This document shows positions 4,325 to 43,471 of a DNA stretch of 46,649 nt, piece by piece. The notes beneath the pieces are model-generated. The model did not search any database, had not been told where the DNA came from, and worked only from the letters and a program-made list of their open reading frames with translations. The first letter of the stretch is position 1; every line of letters starts with the position of its first letter. The stretch spans positions 1 to 46,649 of the forward strand of contig CAZAUE010000004.1 of NCBI GenBank assembly GCA_964488565.1, read 5' to 3'. Both the position numbers and the translations under genes were made by a program. The stretch comes from an uncultured Candidatus Saccharibacteria bacterium (lineage in GTDB: Bacteria; Patescibacteriota; Minisyncoccia; 2-02-FULL-40-12; GWA2-44-9).

Positions 4325-5424
4325 TTTTTATAAAAAGACTTGATTACCTTGCAAATCTTAAGGACCTCAGACTCCTTTAGTTCTGGGTACAAAGGAAGGG
4401 ACAGTATTTCTTGAGACAACTTGGATGTTACTGGCAAATCAGCATCAGAGTATCCAAGAAACCTGTAAGCTTCTTGTCTAAACACTGGTATCGGATAATG
4501 AATAGCAGATTCTATGTTATTCTTTTTTAAAAAATCCCTAAGCCTATCTCTCTCTTTGGTTCTAATAACGAAAAGATGCCAAACTCTTTTTGTTTCATCA
4601 TGACCCACAAAAGGTAAGGTTATGGGTAAATCACCAAGCTCTCTTAAATAGACGAGGGCCAAATCCTCTCTAGTATTATTCCATCTATCCAAATAATCAA
4701 TGCCCCAATTCAAAACTGCCGCTTGTATCTCATCTAACCCACTATTAACCCCTTCTATTCTATTGAGGTATTTATCTACTTCTCCGAAATTCCTTAATTC
4801 TCTTGCTCTGTCAAATAATTTTTTATTATTCGTAATCATCATTCCCGCATCTCCAAATGCTCCTAAATTTTTAGTTGGGTAAAAACTAAAACAACCAATA
4901 TCACCCATGGTTCCGACCATTTTATTCGAATATCTTGCACCATGCGCCTGACAAGAATCTTCAACCACAAATAAATTGTGTTTTCTTGCTATCCGCACAA
5001 TCTTTTTCATGTCTACTGGATAACCATATAAATGTACAGGAAGTATGACCTTTGTATTCTTGGTGATTTTATTCTTAACAAGATCAAGATTCATAACCAT
5101 AGTCTTTTCATCGACATCAACAAAAACTGGGATTGCTCCAGTCATTCTTATTGCCGCAATCGTAGGTGTGGCGGTATGAGAAACAGTTATTACTTCGTCA
5201 CCAACACCAACACCCAAAGACCTCAAGGCAATTGCTATTGAATCGGTTCCAGAATTTACCCCAACAGCAAACTTAGCCCCGGAATAATCAGCAAACTTTT
5301 TTTCAAATCCAATTCGTTCTGGACCACCAACAAACCATCCCCTCTTAAAAACAGAAAAGATTTTTTTGTTAATCTCCTTACCATGAAGACGATACCTTCT
5401 TTTAAAATCAATAAATCTTATCAT
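4321..5424 (-). CDS. fdtB: DegT/DnrJ family NDP-sugar aminotransferase (FdtB/QdtB-like 3-aminotransferase)
   Basis: NSGTD, PVHLYG, EDSCQAHG, SFYPTKNLGAFGDAG (PLP lysine); directly coupled to an fdtA-like gene. Confidence 0.8.
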   Translation of the reverse strand: MIRFIDFKRRYRLHGKEINKKIFSVFKRGWFVGGPERIGFEKKFADYSGAKFAVGVNSGTDSIAIALRSLGVGVGDEVITVSHTATPTIAAIRMTGAIPVFVDVDEKTMVMNLDLVKNKITKNTKVILPVHLYGYPVDMKKIVRIARKHNLFVVEDSCQAHGARYSNKMVGTMGDIGCFSFYPTKNLGAFGDAGMMITNNKKLFDRARELRNFGEVDKYLNRIEGVNSGLDEIQAAVLNWGIDYLDRWNNTREDLALVYLRELGDLPITLPFVGHDETKRVWHLFVIRTKERDRLRDFLKKNNIESAIHYPIPVFRQEAYRFLGYSDADLPVTSKLSQEILSLPLYPELKESEVLKICKVIKSFYKK

Positions 5425-6126: not shown

Positions 6127-7077
6127 TTATTCCATATTACCGTCTTTAGCTGTTTTAGATGGCTGAACAAAAAAATGCATATCGCCCATCAGTGAAATTA
6201 TTTTTTTAATATTCATGTAGCCTTTAAAATCCAATACGTCGTTCAGCTTAAATTTTTCAGTCATATCCAAAATTGTTTTTTTCATGGGACCATCGCCGAC
6301 AATTGTGCAAATAAATTGTCTTTTTGTTTTTTCTCGAACGATGTTCAAGGCTCGCAACAAATCGTCAAATCCCTTCTTTTCTACAAAACGACCCACGGAA
6401 AAAATTCTGATGGGTTCATCTACAGAAACCGTCCTTTCCTTAAAAGGATATTCCTCAATATTTATACCAATGGGATGGACAATCACCTTTTCTGTACTAA
6501 AACCGTAATCAACAACCCTCTCTTTGGCATTTTCCGACATCACTAAAAAAAGAGAGCATTCTTTTTTTAATCTCTCATAAACACCCGGCCCACTTTTAAT
6601 AATTGTACGACTAATGTCGTAACCATAAAAAGTGGTGATAAATTTTTGTGGCAAATTCAAAACATCTTTAATTTTAAGATATTTATTTCCCACCGGCCCA
6701 AAATGGCAATGAGCCAAATCAAAACTCTCACCAACCAAAGCTTCTGCCCAATAAATAAGATTCAGCGAGAAAACCTCACGGCCATAAGCTTTAAAATCAA
6801 GCGCCCCAACAAACGCTTTCGGATTTTTACATAATAAAGAAACTCCTTTTGGAATGGCCATCATTATTCTGGCAAATTTATTTTTAGGTACGTTGATATA
6901 TTTAGTTATTTTTGCCAATTCATATTCATAAAACTTATCCGATATTTCTTTGTTACCGCCGTGCCTGAAAGAGAATATTTTCACCTCTATCCCACGATCA
7001 ATAAGACCTGTGACCTGATCAATAATAAAAGGCTCGGAAACAACAGGAAATGCTTCAATTAAAAATACAATCTTCAT
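6127..7077 (-). CDS. N-terminal part of a WcaL-like GT4 glycosyltransferase
   Basis: FPVVSEPFIIDQ, HCHFG, VGRFVEKKG; ends at FVQPSKTAKDGNME, i.e. at the first Glu of the EX7E motif. Confidence 0.8.
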   Translation of the reverse strand: MKIVFLIEAFPVVSEPFIIDQVTGLIDRGIEVKIFSFRHGGNKEISDKFYEYELAKITKYINVPKNKFARIMMAIPKGVSLLCKNPKAFVGALDFKAYGREVFSLNLIYWAEALVGESFDLAHCHFGPVGNKYLKIKDVLNLPQKFITTFYGYDISRTIIKSGPGVYERLKKECSLFLVMSENAKERVVDYGFSTEKVIVHPIGINIEEYPFKERTVSVDEPIRIFSVGRFVEKKGFDDLLRALNIVREKTKRQFICTIVGDGPMKKTILDMTEKFKLNDVLDFKGYMNIKKIISLMGDMHFFVQPSKTAKDGNME

Positions 7078-13251: not shown

Positions 13252-14640
13252 CTATATTGATGTAACTGTAAATGTTCCACTACTTGTAAAAGTATGGATT
13301 GTATTTCCCCCAGAAGTCGTAATTGTCCCACCAGTAGCAGTCAATGAACCTGTCGGATAAGCTATTATAACAACACCATCTCCCCCTTTTTGTTCCGTAC
13401 CAGAATCCCTAACACCACCAGAACCCCCACCCAAACCATTTGTGCCTGCGGTTGGACCAGTTCCACTATAACCACCATTTCCGCCGCCACCAGCTCCGCC
13501 TGTTCCAGAGAAACCACTTGTTTGGTCGTTTCCTCCTCCACCACCACCCGCATAAGTAACTGCTGTACCACTAATTGAGTTAGAAATACCAGCACCTCCG
13601 TTCCCAGGAGGCGTTAAGGCATCTGCACCAGCAGCATTTGCTCCGCCACCACCGCCACCAGCATATCTTGAAGAAGCAGAATTACCACCAAATCCACCAT
13701 TACCACCCTGACTTCCTGTTCCTCCGGCTGCACCATTACCTGAAGAAGAAGTTGTAGCTCCACCTCCACCACCAGAACCTCCGTTGCGTCCCGCCGTTGC
13801 AACTCCACTAACTAAAGCTCCGCCACCACCGCCACCAGTGACAGTTATGGTGCCAAAGATGCTATTACCACCATCATTACCCACAGCATTTGCAGTGCCC
13901 TGTCCTGCTCCACCCAAACCAACCGTAACTGAATATGTCTGAATTGAGACAGTATAAGCTGAGTCATATTGATAACCACCGGCTCCGCCACCACCGCCAC
14001 CACCGTTACCTCCACTACCGCCGCCGCCCACCACAAGAACACTGACAGGCGCTTGTGCTGTTGTAAAAGTTGTCCAACCAACCCCATTATACCCCCTGAA
14101 TTTATTTAAAGTCGTGTCAAAATATATCTGGCCAGTTCGAGGATTAGAAGGCGCGGCAGATTTAGATGCAACGACAATTGAATCTCCACCAACAACAAGT
14201 TCTCCTGTACCAGTCGGATTTAAAAATAGTGATTGATTGGTACCAGTCGCTGATACCGTGTTAGCTATGATCTGTGTGGCCTTAACTGTGCCATTAACAT
14301 CAATACTCTGTGTGGGACTGTTTGTGCCGACACCTAATCTTTTGTTGGTGTTGTCCCAGAATAGATTTGAATTATCTTGAGATATTGATGCTCCAGAATA
14401 AAACAGCAATGATCCATTTGTAAACGAACCATTGCCCGTCCCCCCTCTTGAGACCGACAAGAGTCCCGACCAACCCAACGAATGAATGTCGCTGGCTGAA
14501 CTAATGGTCACATTGTTATCATTTGAAAATGTCTGGGTGGCACCTGTCTGACCATTAAGAGTTTGTACCACTGCCCAGGCAACTCCGCCAGACACCAAAA
14601 GCATTACTAAAACCGAAAGAAAAATTTTTAATTTTTTCAT
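13252..14640 (-). CDS. secreted glycine-rich protein with phage-tail-fibre-like motifs
   Basis: Signal peptide (…VAWA); VSRGGTG, LFWDNTNKRLGVGTNSP and GQIYFDTT..F.GYNG..W motifs; C-terminal polyglycine domain bounded by VLVVGGGGSGG and GGDGVVIIAYP…HTFTSSGTF. Confidence 0.75.
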   Translation of the reverse strand: MKKLKIFLSVLVMLLVSGGVAWAVVQTLNGQTGATQTFSNDNNVTISSASDIHSLGWSGLLSVSRGGTGNGSFTNGSLLFYSGASISQDNSNLFWDNTNKRLGVGTNSPTQSIDVNGTVKATQIIANTVSATGTNQSLFLNPTGTGELVVGGDSIVVASKSAAPSNPRTGQIYFDTTLNKFRGYNGVGWTTFTTAQAPVSVLVVGGGGSGGNGGGGGGGAGGYQYDSAYTVSIQTYSVTVGLGGAGQGTANAVGNDGGNSIFGTITVTGGGGGGALVSGVATAGRNGGSGGGGGATTSSSGNGAAGGTGSQGGNGGFGGNSASSRYAGGGGGGANAAGADALTPPGNGGAGISNSISGTAVTYAGGGGGGNDQTSGFSGTGGAGGGGNGGYSGTGPTAGTNGLGGGSGGVRDSGTEQKGGDGVVIIAYPTGSLTATGGTITTSGGNTIHTFTSSGTFTVTSI

Positions 14641-38630: not shown

Positions 38631-39830
38631 ATGGAATCAACCCCAAATAATGCTTATATAAATACGACTGGGAGCCTCAAAAAAAAGGTTTTGTTTGTAA
38701 TTACACAATCAGAACTGGGAGGCGCACAAAGATTTCTTTCTACTCTCACCTCTCATCTCGATAAAGAACTTTATGAGATCTTGGTTGCGGTTGGCTCAAG
38801 TGGAAATGGTGATTTTTTGAGAGTTTTAAAAGCCGGAGGAATCTCACACAAGACCTTAAAATTTCTAAAACGAGAACCTGCTCTAAGCGACATCAAAGCT
38901 GTTTTTGAAATCCGCAGTTTAATCAAAAACTATCGTCCTGATATTTTATTCTTAAACAGCTCCAAGGCAGGATTTATTGGTTCCTTGGCGACTGTTTTTC
39001 CAACAAGAATAAATGCATTAAAAGTGGTTTACAGAATTGGTGGCTGGTCATTTAACGACCCGTGGCCAAAATGGAAAAAATGTTTTTGGGTAATTTTAGA
39101 ATGGATTAGCGCAAAATGGAAAGACGTCATCATTGTTAACAACCAACACGACTTAGATCAAGCTAAAAAACTTAAAATTAAACCACGAAGACAAGTAGCA
39201 TTAGTTCATAATGGTATTGAGGTTTATAAATTAGACTTCCTGCAAAAAGAAGAAGCGCGAGCAAGATTAATTGAAAAAGTTGAAAAATTATCTGGTAAAA
39301 ATATTTCGGCAAAAAACATAATCGGCACTATCGCAAATTTTTACCCAACCAAGGGTCTGGAGTATCTCATTGGGGCTGCCGATTATTTTAAAGATGATGA
39401 CAACACGATTTTCTTTATTATTGGCGACGGAGAATTACGACCTGAAATCCAAAAAACAATAATAGAAAAAGGGTTAGAAAAAAAGATTTTCCTTTTGGGA
39501 CAAATTCCCGATGCGTATCGATTTTTACCAGCCTTTGATGTTTTTGTTCTTTCATCCGTAAAAGAAGGTTTTCCGTGGAGTTTAGTTGAGGCAATGTCGG
39601 CCAAATTACCTGTTATTGCCACCAATGTTGGAGCTGTGCCTGAAATAATCAATGACCATAAAAATGGCTTACTTGTAGAACCAAGAGATTCCATGGGATT
39701 AGCAGATGGAATTAAAGAAATTTTAGGAAAAGACCTCCTCAAAAACGAACTGGGAATTCAAGCTCACCAAACCGTACTCTTCAAATTTGAACTTGATAAA
39801 ATGGTAAAGCAGATTGAAGATTTGTTATAA
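38631..39830 (+). CDS. GT4 glycosyltransferase
   Basis: ITQSELGGAQ, NSSKAG, VHNGI, KGL.YL, EGFPWSLVEAMSA. Confidence 0.9.
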   Translation: MESTPNNAYINTTGSLKKKVLFVITQSELGGAQRFLSTLTSHLDKELYEILVAVGSSGNGDFLRVLKAGGISHKTLKFLKREPALSDIKAVFEIRSLIKNYRPDILFLNSSKAGFIGSLATVFPTRINALKVVYRIGGWSFNDPWPKWKKCFWVILEWISAKWKDVIIVNNQHDLDQAKKLKIKPRRQVALVHNGIEVYKLDFLQKEEARARLIEKVEKLSGKNISAKNIIGTIANFYPTKGLEYLIGAADYFKDDDNTIFFIIGDGELRPEIQKTIIEKGLEKKIFLLGQIPDAYRFLPAFDVFVLSSVKEGFPWSLVEAMSAKLPVIATNVGAVPEIINDHKNGLLVEPRDSMGLADGIKEILGKDLLKNELGIQAHQTVLFKFELDKMVKQIEDLL

Positions 39831-40264
39831 GCCCTAAGCACTAAATCCGAAATCCTAAACAATATCTAATGACCGAAATAAAAACTAAAAAATATGACCT
39901 CGAGGAACGGACATTTGAATTTACCAAGAAAACTATTGAATTTATCAATAAGTTGCCAAAAACGATAAGCAACAATGAGATAGCCAAGCAATTAATGCGC
40001 TCATCTGGTTCTGTCGGGGCAAACTACATAGAAGCTAACGAATCTCTGGGTAAAAAAGATTTTATTCTACACATAAGAATCAGTCGAAAAGAAGCTAAGG
40101 AAACTATTTATTGGTTAAAACTTTTAAACAGTGGGGCTGACGATTTAATTCAAGAAGCTACAGAGCTAATGAAAATTTTTGGAGCAATACTGGGAAAATC
40201 TCAGTAGTTTTGGATTTATTATTTTGAATTTGTTTAGAATTTAGATATTAGGATTTAGGATTTA
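39828..40264. mobile_element. putative element: four-helix-bundle gene enclosed by inverted heptamer-repeat arms
   Basis: Left arm TAAGCCC TAAGCAC TAAATCC GAAATCC TAAACAA (39828-39862); right arm (40230-40264) reverse complement TAAATCC TAAATCC TAATATC TAAATTC TAAACAA; mobility is inferred, not shown. Confidence 0.6.
39869..40207 (+). CDS. four helix bundle protein (TIGR02436 / 23S rRNA IVP / Avd-like family)
   Basis: DLEERT..F, QLMRSSGSVGANYIEA, DF…I.ISRKEAKET.YWL.L, L..EATEL.KIF. Confidence 0.92.
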   Translation: MTEIKTKKYDLEERTFEFTKKTIEFINKLPKTISNNEIAKQLMRSSGSVGANYIEANESLGKKDFILHIRISRKEAKETIYWLKLLNSGADDLIQEATELMKIFGAILGKSQ

Positions 40265-41748
40265 TGAAAATACTTCGTATTTTATCTTTGGTGCTTTTGT
40301 TTGTCTTTTTTGCATCTTTTTTAATCCATCCTCTCTACTCTATTAATCAAGACATCGGGCGACATTTAAAATCAGGTGAGATAATTTGGCAGACAAAAAG
40401 CGTCTATAAAACAAACTTATTCTCATTTACCGAACCCGAACACTCATTCATAAACCACCACTGGTTAAGTGAGGTTTCTTTTTACGGCTTAAACAATGTC
40501 ATCGGACTGAAGGGTCTAATTCTGTTCAAAACTGTAATTTTATTGTTGTCTTTGTGGCTCTTGTTTCTGGCTGTCAAAAATAAGGCCGACCTTTGGATAT
40601 TTTTGATTTCTGCCATGGCTGGAATAATGATATGGACAGAACGCACTGATGTCAGACCGGAAATATTTAGTTATTTATTTTTATCATTCTTTATTTTTGC
40701 GATATTGCGGGCTAAATATCAAGGTCAGGCTCGATGGCTTTATTTTTTACCGATTGTTCAAATATTTTGGACAAACATGCATATATATTTTGCTTTGGGG
40801 CCAATACTTTTAACATTTTTCTTACTAGAAAAAATGTTAAATCCTAAGCACGAAATACTAAATCCTAAACAATATCAAAATTCAAATAAAGAAAGTTTCG
40901 GATTTTGGATTTGGGATTTGTTTAGAAATTCGAGATTAGAATTTAGGATTTGGCTGTTAGTTATTTTAGCTACGCTTATTAACCCCAATTTCATTTCTGG
41001 GGCTCTGTATCCCCTCGTTGTGCTAAAAAATTATGGGTATTCAATCGTTGAAAATCAGAACATATTTTTTCTTACTGATTACGGAATATTAATAAGAAAT
41101 ATTCAGTTGTTTCAACTCTCTTTGGCTGTGCTTATTTTAAGCTTTATATTCAGAAAGCGTATCGCCATATTTGAATTACTATCAGGAATTTTCTTTTCCA
41201 TAATGGCCATGAAAATGCTAAGAAATTTCGGTCCGTACGGCTTAGTATTTATACCCCTCACAACCCTCAATTTGTTTGGGATTAAATTAAGCACAAAAAA
41301 AGAGATGGCCGTGCTTATCTCTGTATGTGTTATTTTGATTTCTACCACCTCTTACAACATCAAAAACAAAGTCTCTCTTGCCATCCCCACAGGGGCAGAA
41401 AAGGCCGTTGAATTCGTTAGGAACAACAATATTAAAGGCCCGGTTTTTAATAACTTTGATGTTGGAAGTTTTTTAATATGGAAAATGTACCCCGACCAAA
41501 AAGTTTTTGTTGATGGGAGACCAGAGGCATATAGTCAGGAATTTTTTGAAAATATCTATAAACCCATGCAGATGGATCAGAAAATATGGGAAAAATATTC
41601 TAAAGAGTATGGTATTAACCATGTCTTTTTTGATCACCGTGACATAACTCCTTGGGCAAGAACTTTTCTTGCCAGAATATCACAGGATAAAAAATGGGAG
41701 AGAGTGTATCTTGATGAATATGCTGTCATATTCATCAAGAATTTCTAA
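40264..41748 (+). CDS. multi-pass membrane protein, GT-C-like, with an in-frame repeat-derived insertion
   Basis: DIGRHL..GE, NHHWLSE, RPE, WTNMH, INP, R...P, FN.F..G.FL.W, VFVDGR. Confidence 0.65.
   Translation: MKILRILSLVLLFVFFASFLIHPLYSINQDIGRHLKSGEIIWQTKSVYKTNLFSFTEPEHSFINHHWLSEVSFYGLNNVIGLKGLILFKTVILLLSLWLLFLAVKNKADLWIFLISAMAGIMIWTERTDVRPEIFSYLFLSFFIFAILRAKYQGQARWLYFLPIVQIFWTNMHIYFALGPILLTFFLLEKMLNPKHEILNPKQYQNSNKESFGFWIWDLFRNSRLEFRIWLLVILATLINPNFISGALYPLVVLKNYGYSIVENQNIFFLTDYGILIRNIQLFQLSLAVLILSFIFRKRIAIFELLSGIFFSIMAMKMLRNFGPYGLVFIPLTTLNLFGIKLSTKKEMAVLISVCVILISTTSYNIKNKVSLAIPTGAEKAVEFVRNNNIKGPVFNNFDVGSFLIWKMYPDQKVFVDGRPEAYSQEFFENIYKPMQMDQKIWEKYSKEYGINHVFFDHRDITPWARTFLARISQDKKWERVYLDEYAVIFIKNF
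40838..40952. repeat. gene-less (MITE-like) copy of the heptamer-arm element, in frame within a CDS
   Basis: Left TAAATCC TAAGCAC GAAATAC TAAATCC TAAACAA TATC; right reverse complement CAAATCC TAAATTC TAATCTC GAATTTC TAAACAA ATCC; translated as LNPKHEILNPKQYQNSNKESFGFWIWDLFRNSRLEFRIW. Confidence 0.8.
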
Positions 41749-41824: not shown

Positions 41825-43471
41825 TTAATTATTCTTAGCATCTTCTTCTAAACGCCTAATCGCCTCGTCAATAACTGGGTCATTGGGTACAATTTTTTTC
41901 AATTCTTGTAAGACCCTTATTGATTCGGCAAAAAAACCAAACTTGGCATATAATACTGCCAAATTTTTATAGGCAAATGGGAATTTAGGATCAACTTCAA
42001 TTGCTTTTATATACATCCTAGCTGCCTCCTCAGGTTTTCCTTGGTCCCTGTAGGTGTTGGCCAAGTTGTAAAATGGCTGAGCAAATTCCTGTCCATCGGG
42101 AAGTTGAATTGCCCTTTCATACATTCCGGCTGCTTTTGGCAAATCACCCTTAGAGGCATAAGCATTGCCGAGATTGTTTATAATCCTAATAGTGTCGGGA
42201 TTATATTTAAGGATATCTTCATAGAATCCAATAATATTTCCCCAGGCCAAATTTCGATTGGCCGAGGCCACTGAGAAAAATGCCACATATCCAACCGCGA
42301 CAACAAGCACCAAGCGATAAATATAAGCCCTGGGCCCAGCGTAAGTAAGCAGAATGTCTAAGTAGTAGCCCACCAACACAAAGAGACCAATCAGGGGCAA
42401 ATAGAGCCAATGTTCGTACATGATGGCATTGATAGGAATAATCCCCGACACTGGACTCATGGCAATGAAAAACCAACCGAAACCGAATAACCATATTCGG
42501 TAATGACTAATTTTCAATGACGAATGACCAATGGCTTTTTTGTACAAAATAACTCCAACCGCGACAATAAGTAAAATCATCAAAAACCCGAGCCAGACGG
42601 GCCACTGGAATAAAGAGGTATTCACCGATAATTCCCGTTCCATGTGTAGACCAAGAGGAACAAATATCAATTTAAAATACTCAACAAGTGCATGTCCGAA
42701 TGTATAAAGACGATAACTCAAATGTTCGGTGTAAACATTGGATTGAGCATAAAAATTGAGAGTGTTTTGAAAATTTAAAACAGTAAGACGCAAAATCATA
42801 TAGATGACTGAAACGCCCCAATATGGCAAAGTTTGCCAAACACTTTGTTTAAATGCTGGCCAAAATTTATCTTTAGCAACAAAAGAGATGTAAAGAATCA
42901 TCGCCAAAGCCGGAAAAAGAATTGCAGTTTCTCTGGATAAAACTGCCAAAACCATGGACAAAACCGCCCACCACCTCTTTCCTCCAGCAAACAAAGTGAG
43001 CCCTCCGAGTATAAAGAAAACTGACATTGGATCTCCCCTGCCTGATATGTACGCAACCGCCTCTACGTTCAGCGGGTGCACCAACCAAATTAGCGCAGCA
43101 ATAAAAGCCGGCCTCTGCCTTCTAAATACGAGATACGAGATACTAAATACTAGTATCGCATTGGCAATGTGAAATAGATTACTAATTAGGTGATATCCAA
43201 TCGGACTTGAACCATGCAGAACCCAATTAAATGCAAAGCTCAACAAAAGAAGTGGCCGGTAATAATTACTATTTAAACCAAATCCATGAAGAATGTCTGT
43301 GGTGAAGATGCTTTTAATGTTCTGTCCCGATAAAGAATGGACAAATGAATTGTTAACTATCCAATCATCATCATCCCAGAATAATGGGTTACCCAAATTA
43401 AAAGAGAAGACAATGAGTCCAATGAAAAATAAAACCAAGATCCATCCGGAATTTTTCTTCCATTCAAACAT
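41825..43471 (-). CDS. TMTC-like GT-C protein (putative protein O-glycosyltransferase) with C-terminal TPRs
   Basis: WDDD, YYRPL, HPLNVEAVAYISGR, SRETA, YEHWLYLP, RN..W; TPR motifs NNLGNAY and YNLANTY. Confidence 0.82.
   Translation of the reverse strand: MFEWKKNSGWILVLFFIGLIVFSFNLGNPLFWDDDDWIVNNSFVHSLSGQNIKSIFTTDILHGFGLNSNYYRPLLLLSFAFNWVLHGSSPIGYHLISNLFHIANAILVFSISYLVFRRQRPAFIAALIWLVHPLNVEAVAYISGRGDPMSVFFILGGLTLFAGGKRWWAVLSMVLAVLSRETAILFPALAMILYISFVAKDKFWPAFKQSVWQTLPYWGVSVIYMILRLTVLNFQNTLNFYAQSNVYTEHLSYRLYTFGHALVEYFKLIFVPLGLHMERELSVNTSLFQWPVWLGFLMILLIVAVGVILYKKAIGHSSLKISHYRIWLFGFGWFFIAMSPVSGIIPINAIMYEHWLYLPLIGLFVLVGYYLDILLTYAGPRAYIYRLVLVVAVGYVAFFSVASANRNLAWGNIIGFYEDILKYNPDTIRIINNLGNAYASKGDLPKAAGMYERAIQLPDGQEFAQPFYNLANTYRDQGKPEEAARMYIKAIEVDPKFPFAYKNLAVLYAKFGFFAESIRVLQELKKIVPNDPVIDEAIRRLEEDAKNN
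42501..42535. repeat. solo arm of five heptamers in frame within the TMTC-like gene
   Basis: TAATGAC TAATTTT CAATGAC GAATGAC CAATGGC; encodes AIGHSSLKISHY in a loop between TM helices. Confidence 0.65.

Follow-up and report, generated by a model that had tools for sequence, protein, structure and literature searches.

The stretch of DNA analysed here, called the window in the following, is one whole contig (C4) of 46,649 nt (46.6 kb) and belongs to a genome (G000) of 745 kb in 31 contigs with about 39% G+C; the nearest named homologues of its proteins are supplied by bins of Patescibacteria/Paceibacterota, and its DNA was found in groundwater metagenome runs, four of which (all DNA) were used for contig comparison. 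In its last part, a gene for a GT4-family glycosyltransferase is followed by a 433-bp element made up of a left arm, a small gene, and a right arm, and this is followed by a gene for a polytopic membrane protein, the host gene, in which a second and gene-less copy of the element is found in frame (Table 1). This short copy is very probably a member of a dispersed family of palindromes of the type known from ribosomal RNA (rRNA) intervening sequences (IVSs), and is one that the ribosome would most likely read straight through; its insertion and its membership in the family are well supported by sequence comparison. For that comparison 41 related Patescibacteria genomes of the same order were available, one of which (G001) is of the same genus as G000; G-numbers denote genomes, C-numbers contigs of G000 unless stated otherwise, L-numbers loci, and P-numbers homologous proteins.

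Table 1. Features of the window in and around the short copy (ORF, open reading frame)
Feature	Position	Strand	Remarks
GT4-family glycosyltransferase gene	38631-39830	+	upstream context of the empty-site comparison
Full element, 433 bp	39831-40263	+	left arm, PF05635 gene, right arm; from sequence reading, repeat comparison, Pfam, and empty sites
112-aa ORF, family 23S_rRNA_IVP (PF05635)	39869-40207	+	E 2.6e-15; four-helix-bundle protein
Host gene, 494-aa polytopic membrane protein	40264-41748	+	predicted GT-C glycosyltransferase fold; no Pfam family
Gene-less palindromic repeat copy (short copy), 115 nt	40838-40952	+	lies in frame within the host gene; codes for residues ~192-230 (LNPKHEILNPKQYQNSNKESFGFWIWDLFRNSRLEFRIW)
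Left arm of short copy	40838-40876	+	four heptamers, TAAACAA box, TATC; 86% identical to 39828-39869
Inner part and loop of short copy	40877-40917	+	more degenerate heptamers, mutually paired in the predicted fold
Right arm of short copy	40918-40952	+	TTGTTTA box (40918-40924) and four heptamers; 83% identical over 40894-40951 to 40206-40263

The ends of the short copy were set by break points of metagenome contigs (40838/40839) and by its register with the full element. Its left arm reads TAAATCC TAAGCAC GAAATAC TAAATCC (40838-40865), then TAAACAA (40866-40872), then TATC; repeat comparison pairs 40838-40879 with the left end of the full element over 42 nt, and 40894-40951 with its right end over 58 nt. 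An earlier note on this DNA, made from the letters only, had described both arms as recurring in the layout of four heptamers, TAAACAA, and 4 nt, about 575 bp downstream of the full element and with about 45 bp between the boxes; sequence reading and repeat pairing (86% and 83%) bear out the layout, the short copy begins 575 nt past the end of the full element, and its TAAACAA and TTGTTTA boxes are 45 nt apart. The PF05635 ORF of the neighbour is absent from it. The strongest 7-base periodicity of the contig is found here; self-identity at a lag of 7 is 0.566 at 40839-40951 versus a mean of 0.266 (sd 0.052) for 2327 contig windows of 113 nt, none of which (0/2327) reaches 0.566, and the top windows all lie within the two elements. 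The 17-mer AAATCCTAAACAATATC is present in two exact copies and one with 3 mismatches, against 0.63 matches expected; three matches were obtained in 3 of 100 shuffles. The terminal inverted repeats are able to form a long stem, and the RNA is predicted to fold into a hairpin of -29.1 kcal/mol (z -2.68), a stability that 0 of 200 shuffles equalled. A scan of the window with Rfam at gathering thresholds yielded 0 matches, thus neither a group I or group II intron nor any other curated RNA family.

The open frame of the host gene continues through the short copy. A 23-residue core of the encoded segment, YQNSNKESFGFWIWDLFRNSRLEF, is missing in 28 of the 29 orthologues aligned and present in P0007; the orthologues thus carry no conserved segment of equal length, and together with the other copies of the family (see below) they support the idea of the earlier note that a gene-less copy of the element was inserted in frame. 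Matches to the host protein, obtained in 20 of the 41 related genomes, are split at about residues 192-228. Of 120 homologues, 113 allowed the loop from the motif NxHIYF to xNPx to be measured; its length has a mode of 37-39 residues (78/113) versus about 62 in the window, and the protein is 33 residues longer than its shortest close orthologue (P0003, 461 aa). By these comparisons, the insert most likely adds about 33 residues to a loop between two transmembrane helices. The host protein has 1111 homologues at E <=0.001 among 8000 candidates; its AlphaFold2 model, built from a 30-sequence alignment, has a mean predicted local distance difference test score (pLDDT) of 78.3 and a predicted template-modelling (TM) score of 0.82, and Foldseek matched it in the PDB to the GT-C glycosyltransferases DPY19 (7zlh, E 6.5e-7), STT3/PglB/AglB, AftA, and ArnT with query TM-scores of 0.45-0.62. 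Going by this model, the host gene encodes a membrane glycosyltransferase of the GT-C fold. There, helices 174-192 and 224-238 flank the insert (about residues 192-230), as had been expected of a frame-preserving segment of about 39 residues between transmembrane helices; the block of the insert is a low-confidence loop (pLDDT 49-58) and the blocks of the flanking helices score 80-94. In the orthologue alignment the C-terminal two thirds of the protein are of full length, with the invariant motifs kept.

Searches by BLAST with a 120-nt segment resulted in matches at E <=0.01 in 26 of the 41 genomes, with up to 27 per genome; G000 has 16 matching pieces. Four further whole hairpins are found in this genome (C8:12486-12578, C12:~4715-4790, C14:~14460-14541, and C19:6738-6856), and single arms on C5, C7, C10, C11, C27, and C28, so that the search for other DNA copies suggested in the earlier note found many, in G000 as well as in its relatives. 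Contig C27 starts (1-45) inside a right arm and continues, with few differences, like the sequence after the C19 copy (~6820-6870); the likely cause is variation between strains or a break of the assembly at this repeat. The family consists of imperfect palindromes with arms of tandem TAAATCC-type heptamers and an inner TAAACAA/TTGTTTA box; some copies are intergenic, others reside within essential genes, and two interrupt the 23S rRNA gene of G001. The C19 copy retains 19 nt including the start of the PF05635 gene, and therefore at least one short copy descends from the long form. For the short copy of the window itself the earlier note had considered a scar left by local loss of the gene; this part is not supported, since the copy has the same canonical short form as others and contains no gene remnant.

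In the four metagenome runs the depth of the arms is 100-600 compared to 5-10 for unique flanks, and contigs sharing the arms diverge at 40838/40839, 40872, 40221, and 40263-40265; high depth and common break points together therefore indicate a dispersed repeat with defined ends which is abundant across the community. Such repetition can mislead assembly, and as some assembly contigs end in arm sequence (C27), the insert might be thought of as a repeat-caused artefact, or the host gene as a pseudogene. This is hardly conceivable, because contigs from two samples cover the segment and both its flanks with 0 differences (X1 record 5, 40236-41500; X5 record 20, 40386-41283), the ORF is intact, of full length, and conserved, and other lineages carry the same insert at the same place.

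The full element occupies the intergenic space, from the GT4 stop codon to the host-gene ATG, and its PF05635 ORF is the only copy found in G000 with the query used. At two orthologous metagenome loci, L051, whose orthologue is 82% identical, and L053 (62%), only 3 nt lie between the GT4 stop codon and the ATG of the membrane-protein gene, where the window has 433 bp; these empty sites show that the full element, arms plus gene, was inserted as one unit. That the arms behave as a unit had been proposed before and stands, for arms and gene together; the two copies lying side by side are, however, not the best evidence for it, the empty sites being better. For the short copy the junctions could not be fixed, as the host-gene loop varies too much from one orthologue to another. 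Some metagenome contigs contain joints that jump from one arm of the full element to the other, passing over about 340-370 nt; a reading of these as excision was rejected, since other letters lie in between, and they are read as other short copies elsewhere in the community. The right arms at 40206-40263 of the window and on C19, C14, C8, L023, L025, L030, and L031 stop 0-15 nt before the next ATG, and the TAGGATT units of right arms contain AGGA; the right arm may, judging from these letters, supply or mask the ribosome-binding site of the next gene.

Assignment of the family to the IVS type would rest on copies that interrupt the 23S rRNA gene of G001 and on the long form with its PF05635 gene in the loop. 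In G001, locus L032 is the 5' part of the 23S gene, with positions 1-529 of the large-subunit model spread over 818 nt, and holds two hairpins of the family where the 23S gene of G000 has short native helices. In G037 (L093, ~1372-2353; on contig C10 of that genome), a PF05635 gene with complementary arms lies inside the 16S gene near its 5' end, positions 1-588 of the small-subunit model being found in 982 nt; the complementary arms there include G-T pairings in the rRNA sense. Matches to PF05635 were obtained in 30 of the 41 genomes, 24 of them above the cut-off, and flanking inverted repeats with z >=3.9 are present at 15 of the 30 loci (that of the window included), all 15 being among the 24. 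Every arm-bearing PF05635 element has its own arm sequence, which is equivalent to the two arms covarying from element to element. A period of 7 fits best in 29 of 48 PF05635 flanks (one of the 48 is a run of N, an artefact) and a period of 8 in 7, versus 5 of 47 controls taken 250-400 nt away; right arms of PF05635 loci mostly end a few bases before the next start codon.

The IVS of Coxiella is described, in the parts of PMC4990558 that concern it, as having a 28-bp terminal stem, as being excised by RNase III, and as carrying an S23p ORF preceded by tandem heptameric repeats; the same parts state that the origin and mobility of rRNA IVSs and the role of the S23p/IVP protein have been open for decades. 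Like the S23p/IVP IVSs of Coxiella, Leptospira, and others, the elements described here have long-stem inverted repeats, a PF05635 ORF in the loop, and heptamers in tandem beside the ORF or the stem. Unlike in these, where the location in rRNA is the defining trait, the short copy of the window resides inside a coding sequence and the full one in the intergenic space between two protein genes. The short copy also has no PF05635 ORF, but such an ORF is optional in known IVSs. A survey of rRNA genes in the candidate phyla radiation (CPR) reports, in its main text, 23S_rRNA_IVP ORFs within insertions of 16S and 23S genes and many short (<200 bp), uncharacterised non-intron insertions at classical IVS sites (PMC11270868); by analogy, the 23S hairpins of G001 fit the latter class. 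The insertions treated in that text concern rRNA genes only, whereas the copies described here also occur between or inside protein genes, and its main text contains none of the terms ‘inverted repeat’, ‘palindrom’, ‘S23’, or ‘four-helix’.

The short copy is, from its sequence, probably translated, that is, read through by the ribosome in the manner of Rickettsia palindromic elements (RPEs). Among the five hairpins of G000 only the in-gene copy has a stop-free frame, the other four having at least one stop in all six frames, and its right arm departs from that of the full element at just the place where the latter's letters would create an in-frame TAG. In relatives, segments of the family lie in frame in genes for RecG (L024), a GIY-YIG protein (L026, a whole hairpin), a Mur ligase (L027), MnmA (L033), and class I aminoacyl-tRNA synthetases (L029, L036, L037); in G000 itself they do so in an isoleucyl-tRNA synthetase (IleRS) gene (C10, ...NSKSEILNPKQIQNSN...) and in an O-antigen-ligase-like ORF (C7). 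In-ORF copies were thus seen at 8 of the 27 relative loci examined, with three weak matches (L042, L044, L045; 24-31 nt, E 0.003-0.007) dropped as they have no arm-like sequence. Single arms within ORFs have AAATCC in sense orientation in 12 cases versus 1; several share a site, and the relatives are not independent. Two of the synthetase ORFs (L029 and L036) contain an internal histidine-phosphatase domain (His_Phos_1) according to Pfam, and the IleRS-like ORF of G000 (C10:10419-13868) has a motif of the RHGHSQKN type. A translated insert would be recognisable by predicted tryptic peptides, which include ESFGFWIWDLFR, and by the junction peptides ...FFLLEKMLNPK... and ...LEFRIWLLV....

The segment might instead stay untranslated, either because RNase III excises it as in IVSs and leaves the messenger RNA in two pieces or because the ribosome bypasses it, in which case the open frame would be incidental. 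Members of the family in rRNA are presumably excised, G000 encodes RNase III, and the stability of the predicted hairpin makes it conceivable that the RNA could be a substrate of the enzyme here as well; nevertheless this scenario is unlikely. Cutting without ligation would leave the C-terminal two thirds of the protein with no start codon or ribosome-binding site, the only open frame among the five hairpins of the genome is the one in the gene, arm remnants of varied length are found in frame across many lineages, and no intron or other Rfam family was detected in the window. A search for sequencing runs that contain 39700-41300 listed no RNA run. Among 15 of 35 contig joints listed from the DNA metagenomes none removes 40839-40951, and absence of such removal cannot be demonstrated from these. 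Read-through by the ribosome is therefore preferred for the short copy.

Several observations weigh against the picture of a mobile IVS-type hairpin family with a translated member in the host gene. No mobilising enzyme for the hairpins was identified in G000, and no target-site duplication is visible when the filled site of the full element is compared with the empty sites (L051 and L053). Hairpins are found in five genomes without a PF05635 match (G010, G012, G025, G028, and G038); over the 41 genomes, 21 have both, 5 the hairpin only, 9 the gene only, and 6 neither, so there is no clear association and a dependence of the hairpins on the PF05635 protein is not supported. When 11 hairpin copies were analysed with RNAalifold, only the 8-bp stem of the boxes was retained, with 1 of 8 pairs compensatory; as the heptamer arms fail to align in register, covariation within the family cannot be assessed in this way. 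Folding of both strands of five copies gave no consistent asymmetry, and selection at the RNA level is therefore not shown within the hairpin family. The low model confidence of the insert is matched by residues 258-274 and 370-376 of the host protein. Lastly, unrelated strong in-frame palindromes are present at the same loop in G027, G036, G033, G034, and G055, which would also be compatible with hairpins growing in place, or with a site that is simply permissive. In G027 (L007/L116) and G036 (L019/L140) the palindrome is nearly perfect, has a stem of about 37 bp, and keeps the frame of the loop; the folding energy (dG) is -61.5 in G027 and, with a second palindrome nested in its loop, -84.5 in G036 (z about -9 to -11 for the two).

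Growth in place would mean that slippage of heptamers and intrastrand template switching formed the hairpin at a length-tolerant loop, with no copying from a dispersed element. Comparison of 50 distinct loop DNAs, in all of which (50/50) the frame is kept, showed 36 plain ones (27-75 nt, lag-7 identity 0.14-0.35), 9 that are 7-periodic (window, L051, L052, L112, L113, L117, L118, L134, and L004), and 5 with unrelated palindromes; that unrelated palindromes, or arm-only heptamer tracts as in G044, G048, G052, G054, G043, and G016, affect the same loop in 14 of 50 cases speaks for this scenario. It is nonetheless very unlikely, since the short copy shares its layout, and 83-86% identity, with both arms of the element that lies 575 bp upstream, similar copies are present in 26 of 41 genomes, the arms recur in hundreds of contigs with the same sharp borders, and the long form is either there or missing in its entirety. 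The VNLKFKIFNLKK tract of L051 and L052 aligns with the left arm of the window, and within one genus L112 has the right arm only and L113 the left arm only; the complementary half-remnants of this genus suggest, as far as the sequences go, that a whole hairpin was once there and was worn down by deletions that kept the frame.

Peptides corresponding to the whole hairpin occur at the loop in P0007, P0108, and P0109, the inserts of which are known as peptides only, and a left-arm peptide in P0071 and P0072. P0007 is a mosaic, being window-like at residues 201-270 (0.77-0.97 identity) and P0011-like at 81-200 and 261-330; because of this, the insert may travel with its flanking sequence by homologous recombination, and the family as a whole would spread partly by recombination between alleles. 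A recent hop from the neighbouring full element into the host gene is not supported; since the copies are only 83-86% alike and family material is found in the same loop of other lineages, the insertion looks older or acquired by recombination. Old insertion with decay, repeated insertion, and a permissive site cannot be separated by the loop data.

Candidates for a mobiliser were sought among the genes of G000. Two ORFs of the Y1_Tnp family, which resemble transposases associated with repetitive extragenic palindromes (REP; RAYT) or IS200, are encoded at C17:2144-2410 and C8:25355-25588 (222 and 239 aa); they were rejected as both are flanked by their own, different G+C-rich hairpins and not by heptamer arms. 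The gene on C17 has the same G+C-rich hairpin on both sides, which suggests a separate REP-like system. An RVT_1 ORF (C18:6863-7459, about 345 aa) lies near a contig end, on a contig away from any arm found. In G037, a region homologous to RVT_1 (L093:150-1115) is located just upstream of the 16S gene.

The RPEs, palindromic repeats some 100-150 bp long, are described in a review (PMC10969869) as being dispersed through a small genome and lying in frame in unrelated housekeeping genes, where they give translational fusions compatible with the protein fold. The copies and arms in the genes for the GT-C enzyme, IleRS, RecG, Mur ligase, MnmA, and the GIY-YIG protein resemble them in being in frame and compatible with the fold; they differ in phylum, in their presumably unrelated sequence, in their arms of tandem heptamers, and, compared with the RPEs as described there, in that family members also reside in rRNA genes and that a long form carries PF05635. 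By its effect on the protein, the short copy can be compared to an RPE, and by its architecture and relatives it is read, by analogy, as an IVS-type hairpin.

Bacterial MITEs (miniature transposable elements with inverted repeats) include the Correia/NEMIS elements of Neisseria; RNA hairpins of Correia elements are cut by RNase III. The descriptive traits of the MITE type are found in the family: it is short, AT-rich, and present in many copies, has inverted ends and no transposase gene, and often lies just upstream of genes. The earlier note had put forward a non-autonomous MITE-like partner; a MITE in the strict sense is not supported, as no target-site duplication is visible between the filled and empty sites of the full element and the partner, whose autonomy is unproven, has no known transposase. 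No transposase-bearing autonomous relative was found, the long form encoding only the four-helix-bundle protein of PF05635. With REP/RAYT systems it has in common that hairpin repeats occur in a genome with two Y1_Tnp proteins, but the repeat neither flanks the Y1 genes nor matches their hairpins.

A far-reaching and rather doubtful extension would be that PF05635 proteins (S23p/IVP, Avd-like) and heptamer arms together form a distinct class of transposase-free selfish elements, in which the pentameric four-helix bundle recognises its own heptamer array; classical rRNA IVSs would then be the rRNA-resident subset, and in Patescibacteria the elements and their gene-less miniatures would also have colonised 5' leaders as well as loops of proteins, with recombination carrying them from allele to allele. 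The literature, searched in main texts, gave no account of PF05635 genes with heptamer arms outside rRNA (the supplements of PMC11270868 may list such) and none, again in main texts, of in-frame palindromes in Patescibacteria.

With one type of hairpin in three settings, namely rRNA, intergenic sites immediately ahead of start codons, and in-frame sites within essential genes, and with a long form that comes and goes as a unit, the family offers a comparative system for the movement of IVS-type elements and the role of the S23p/IVP protein. The building of protein loops from palindromic repeats, best known so far from Rickettsia, is thereby seen a second time in a phylogenetically remote group. 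Ultra-small genomes are usually considered poor in repeats; here, loops built from palindromes occur in just such genomes. In practice, the repeats can break assemblies and add spurious ‘LNPK/FGF’ peptides and length variation to alignments of orthologues. Downstream of the host gene, on the opposite strand (41825-43471), lies an ORF of 548 aa with many transmembrane segments and TPR repeats at the C-terminus; TPR domains are also fused to the host-protein orthologues P0108 and P0109.

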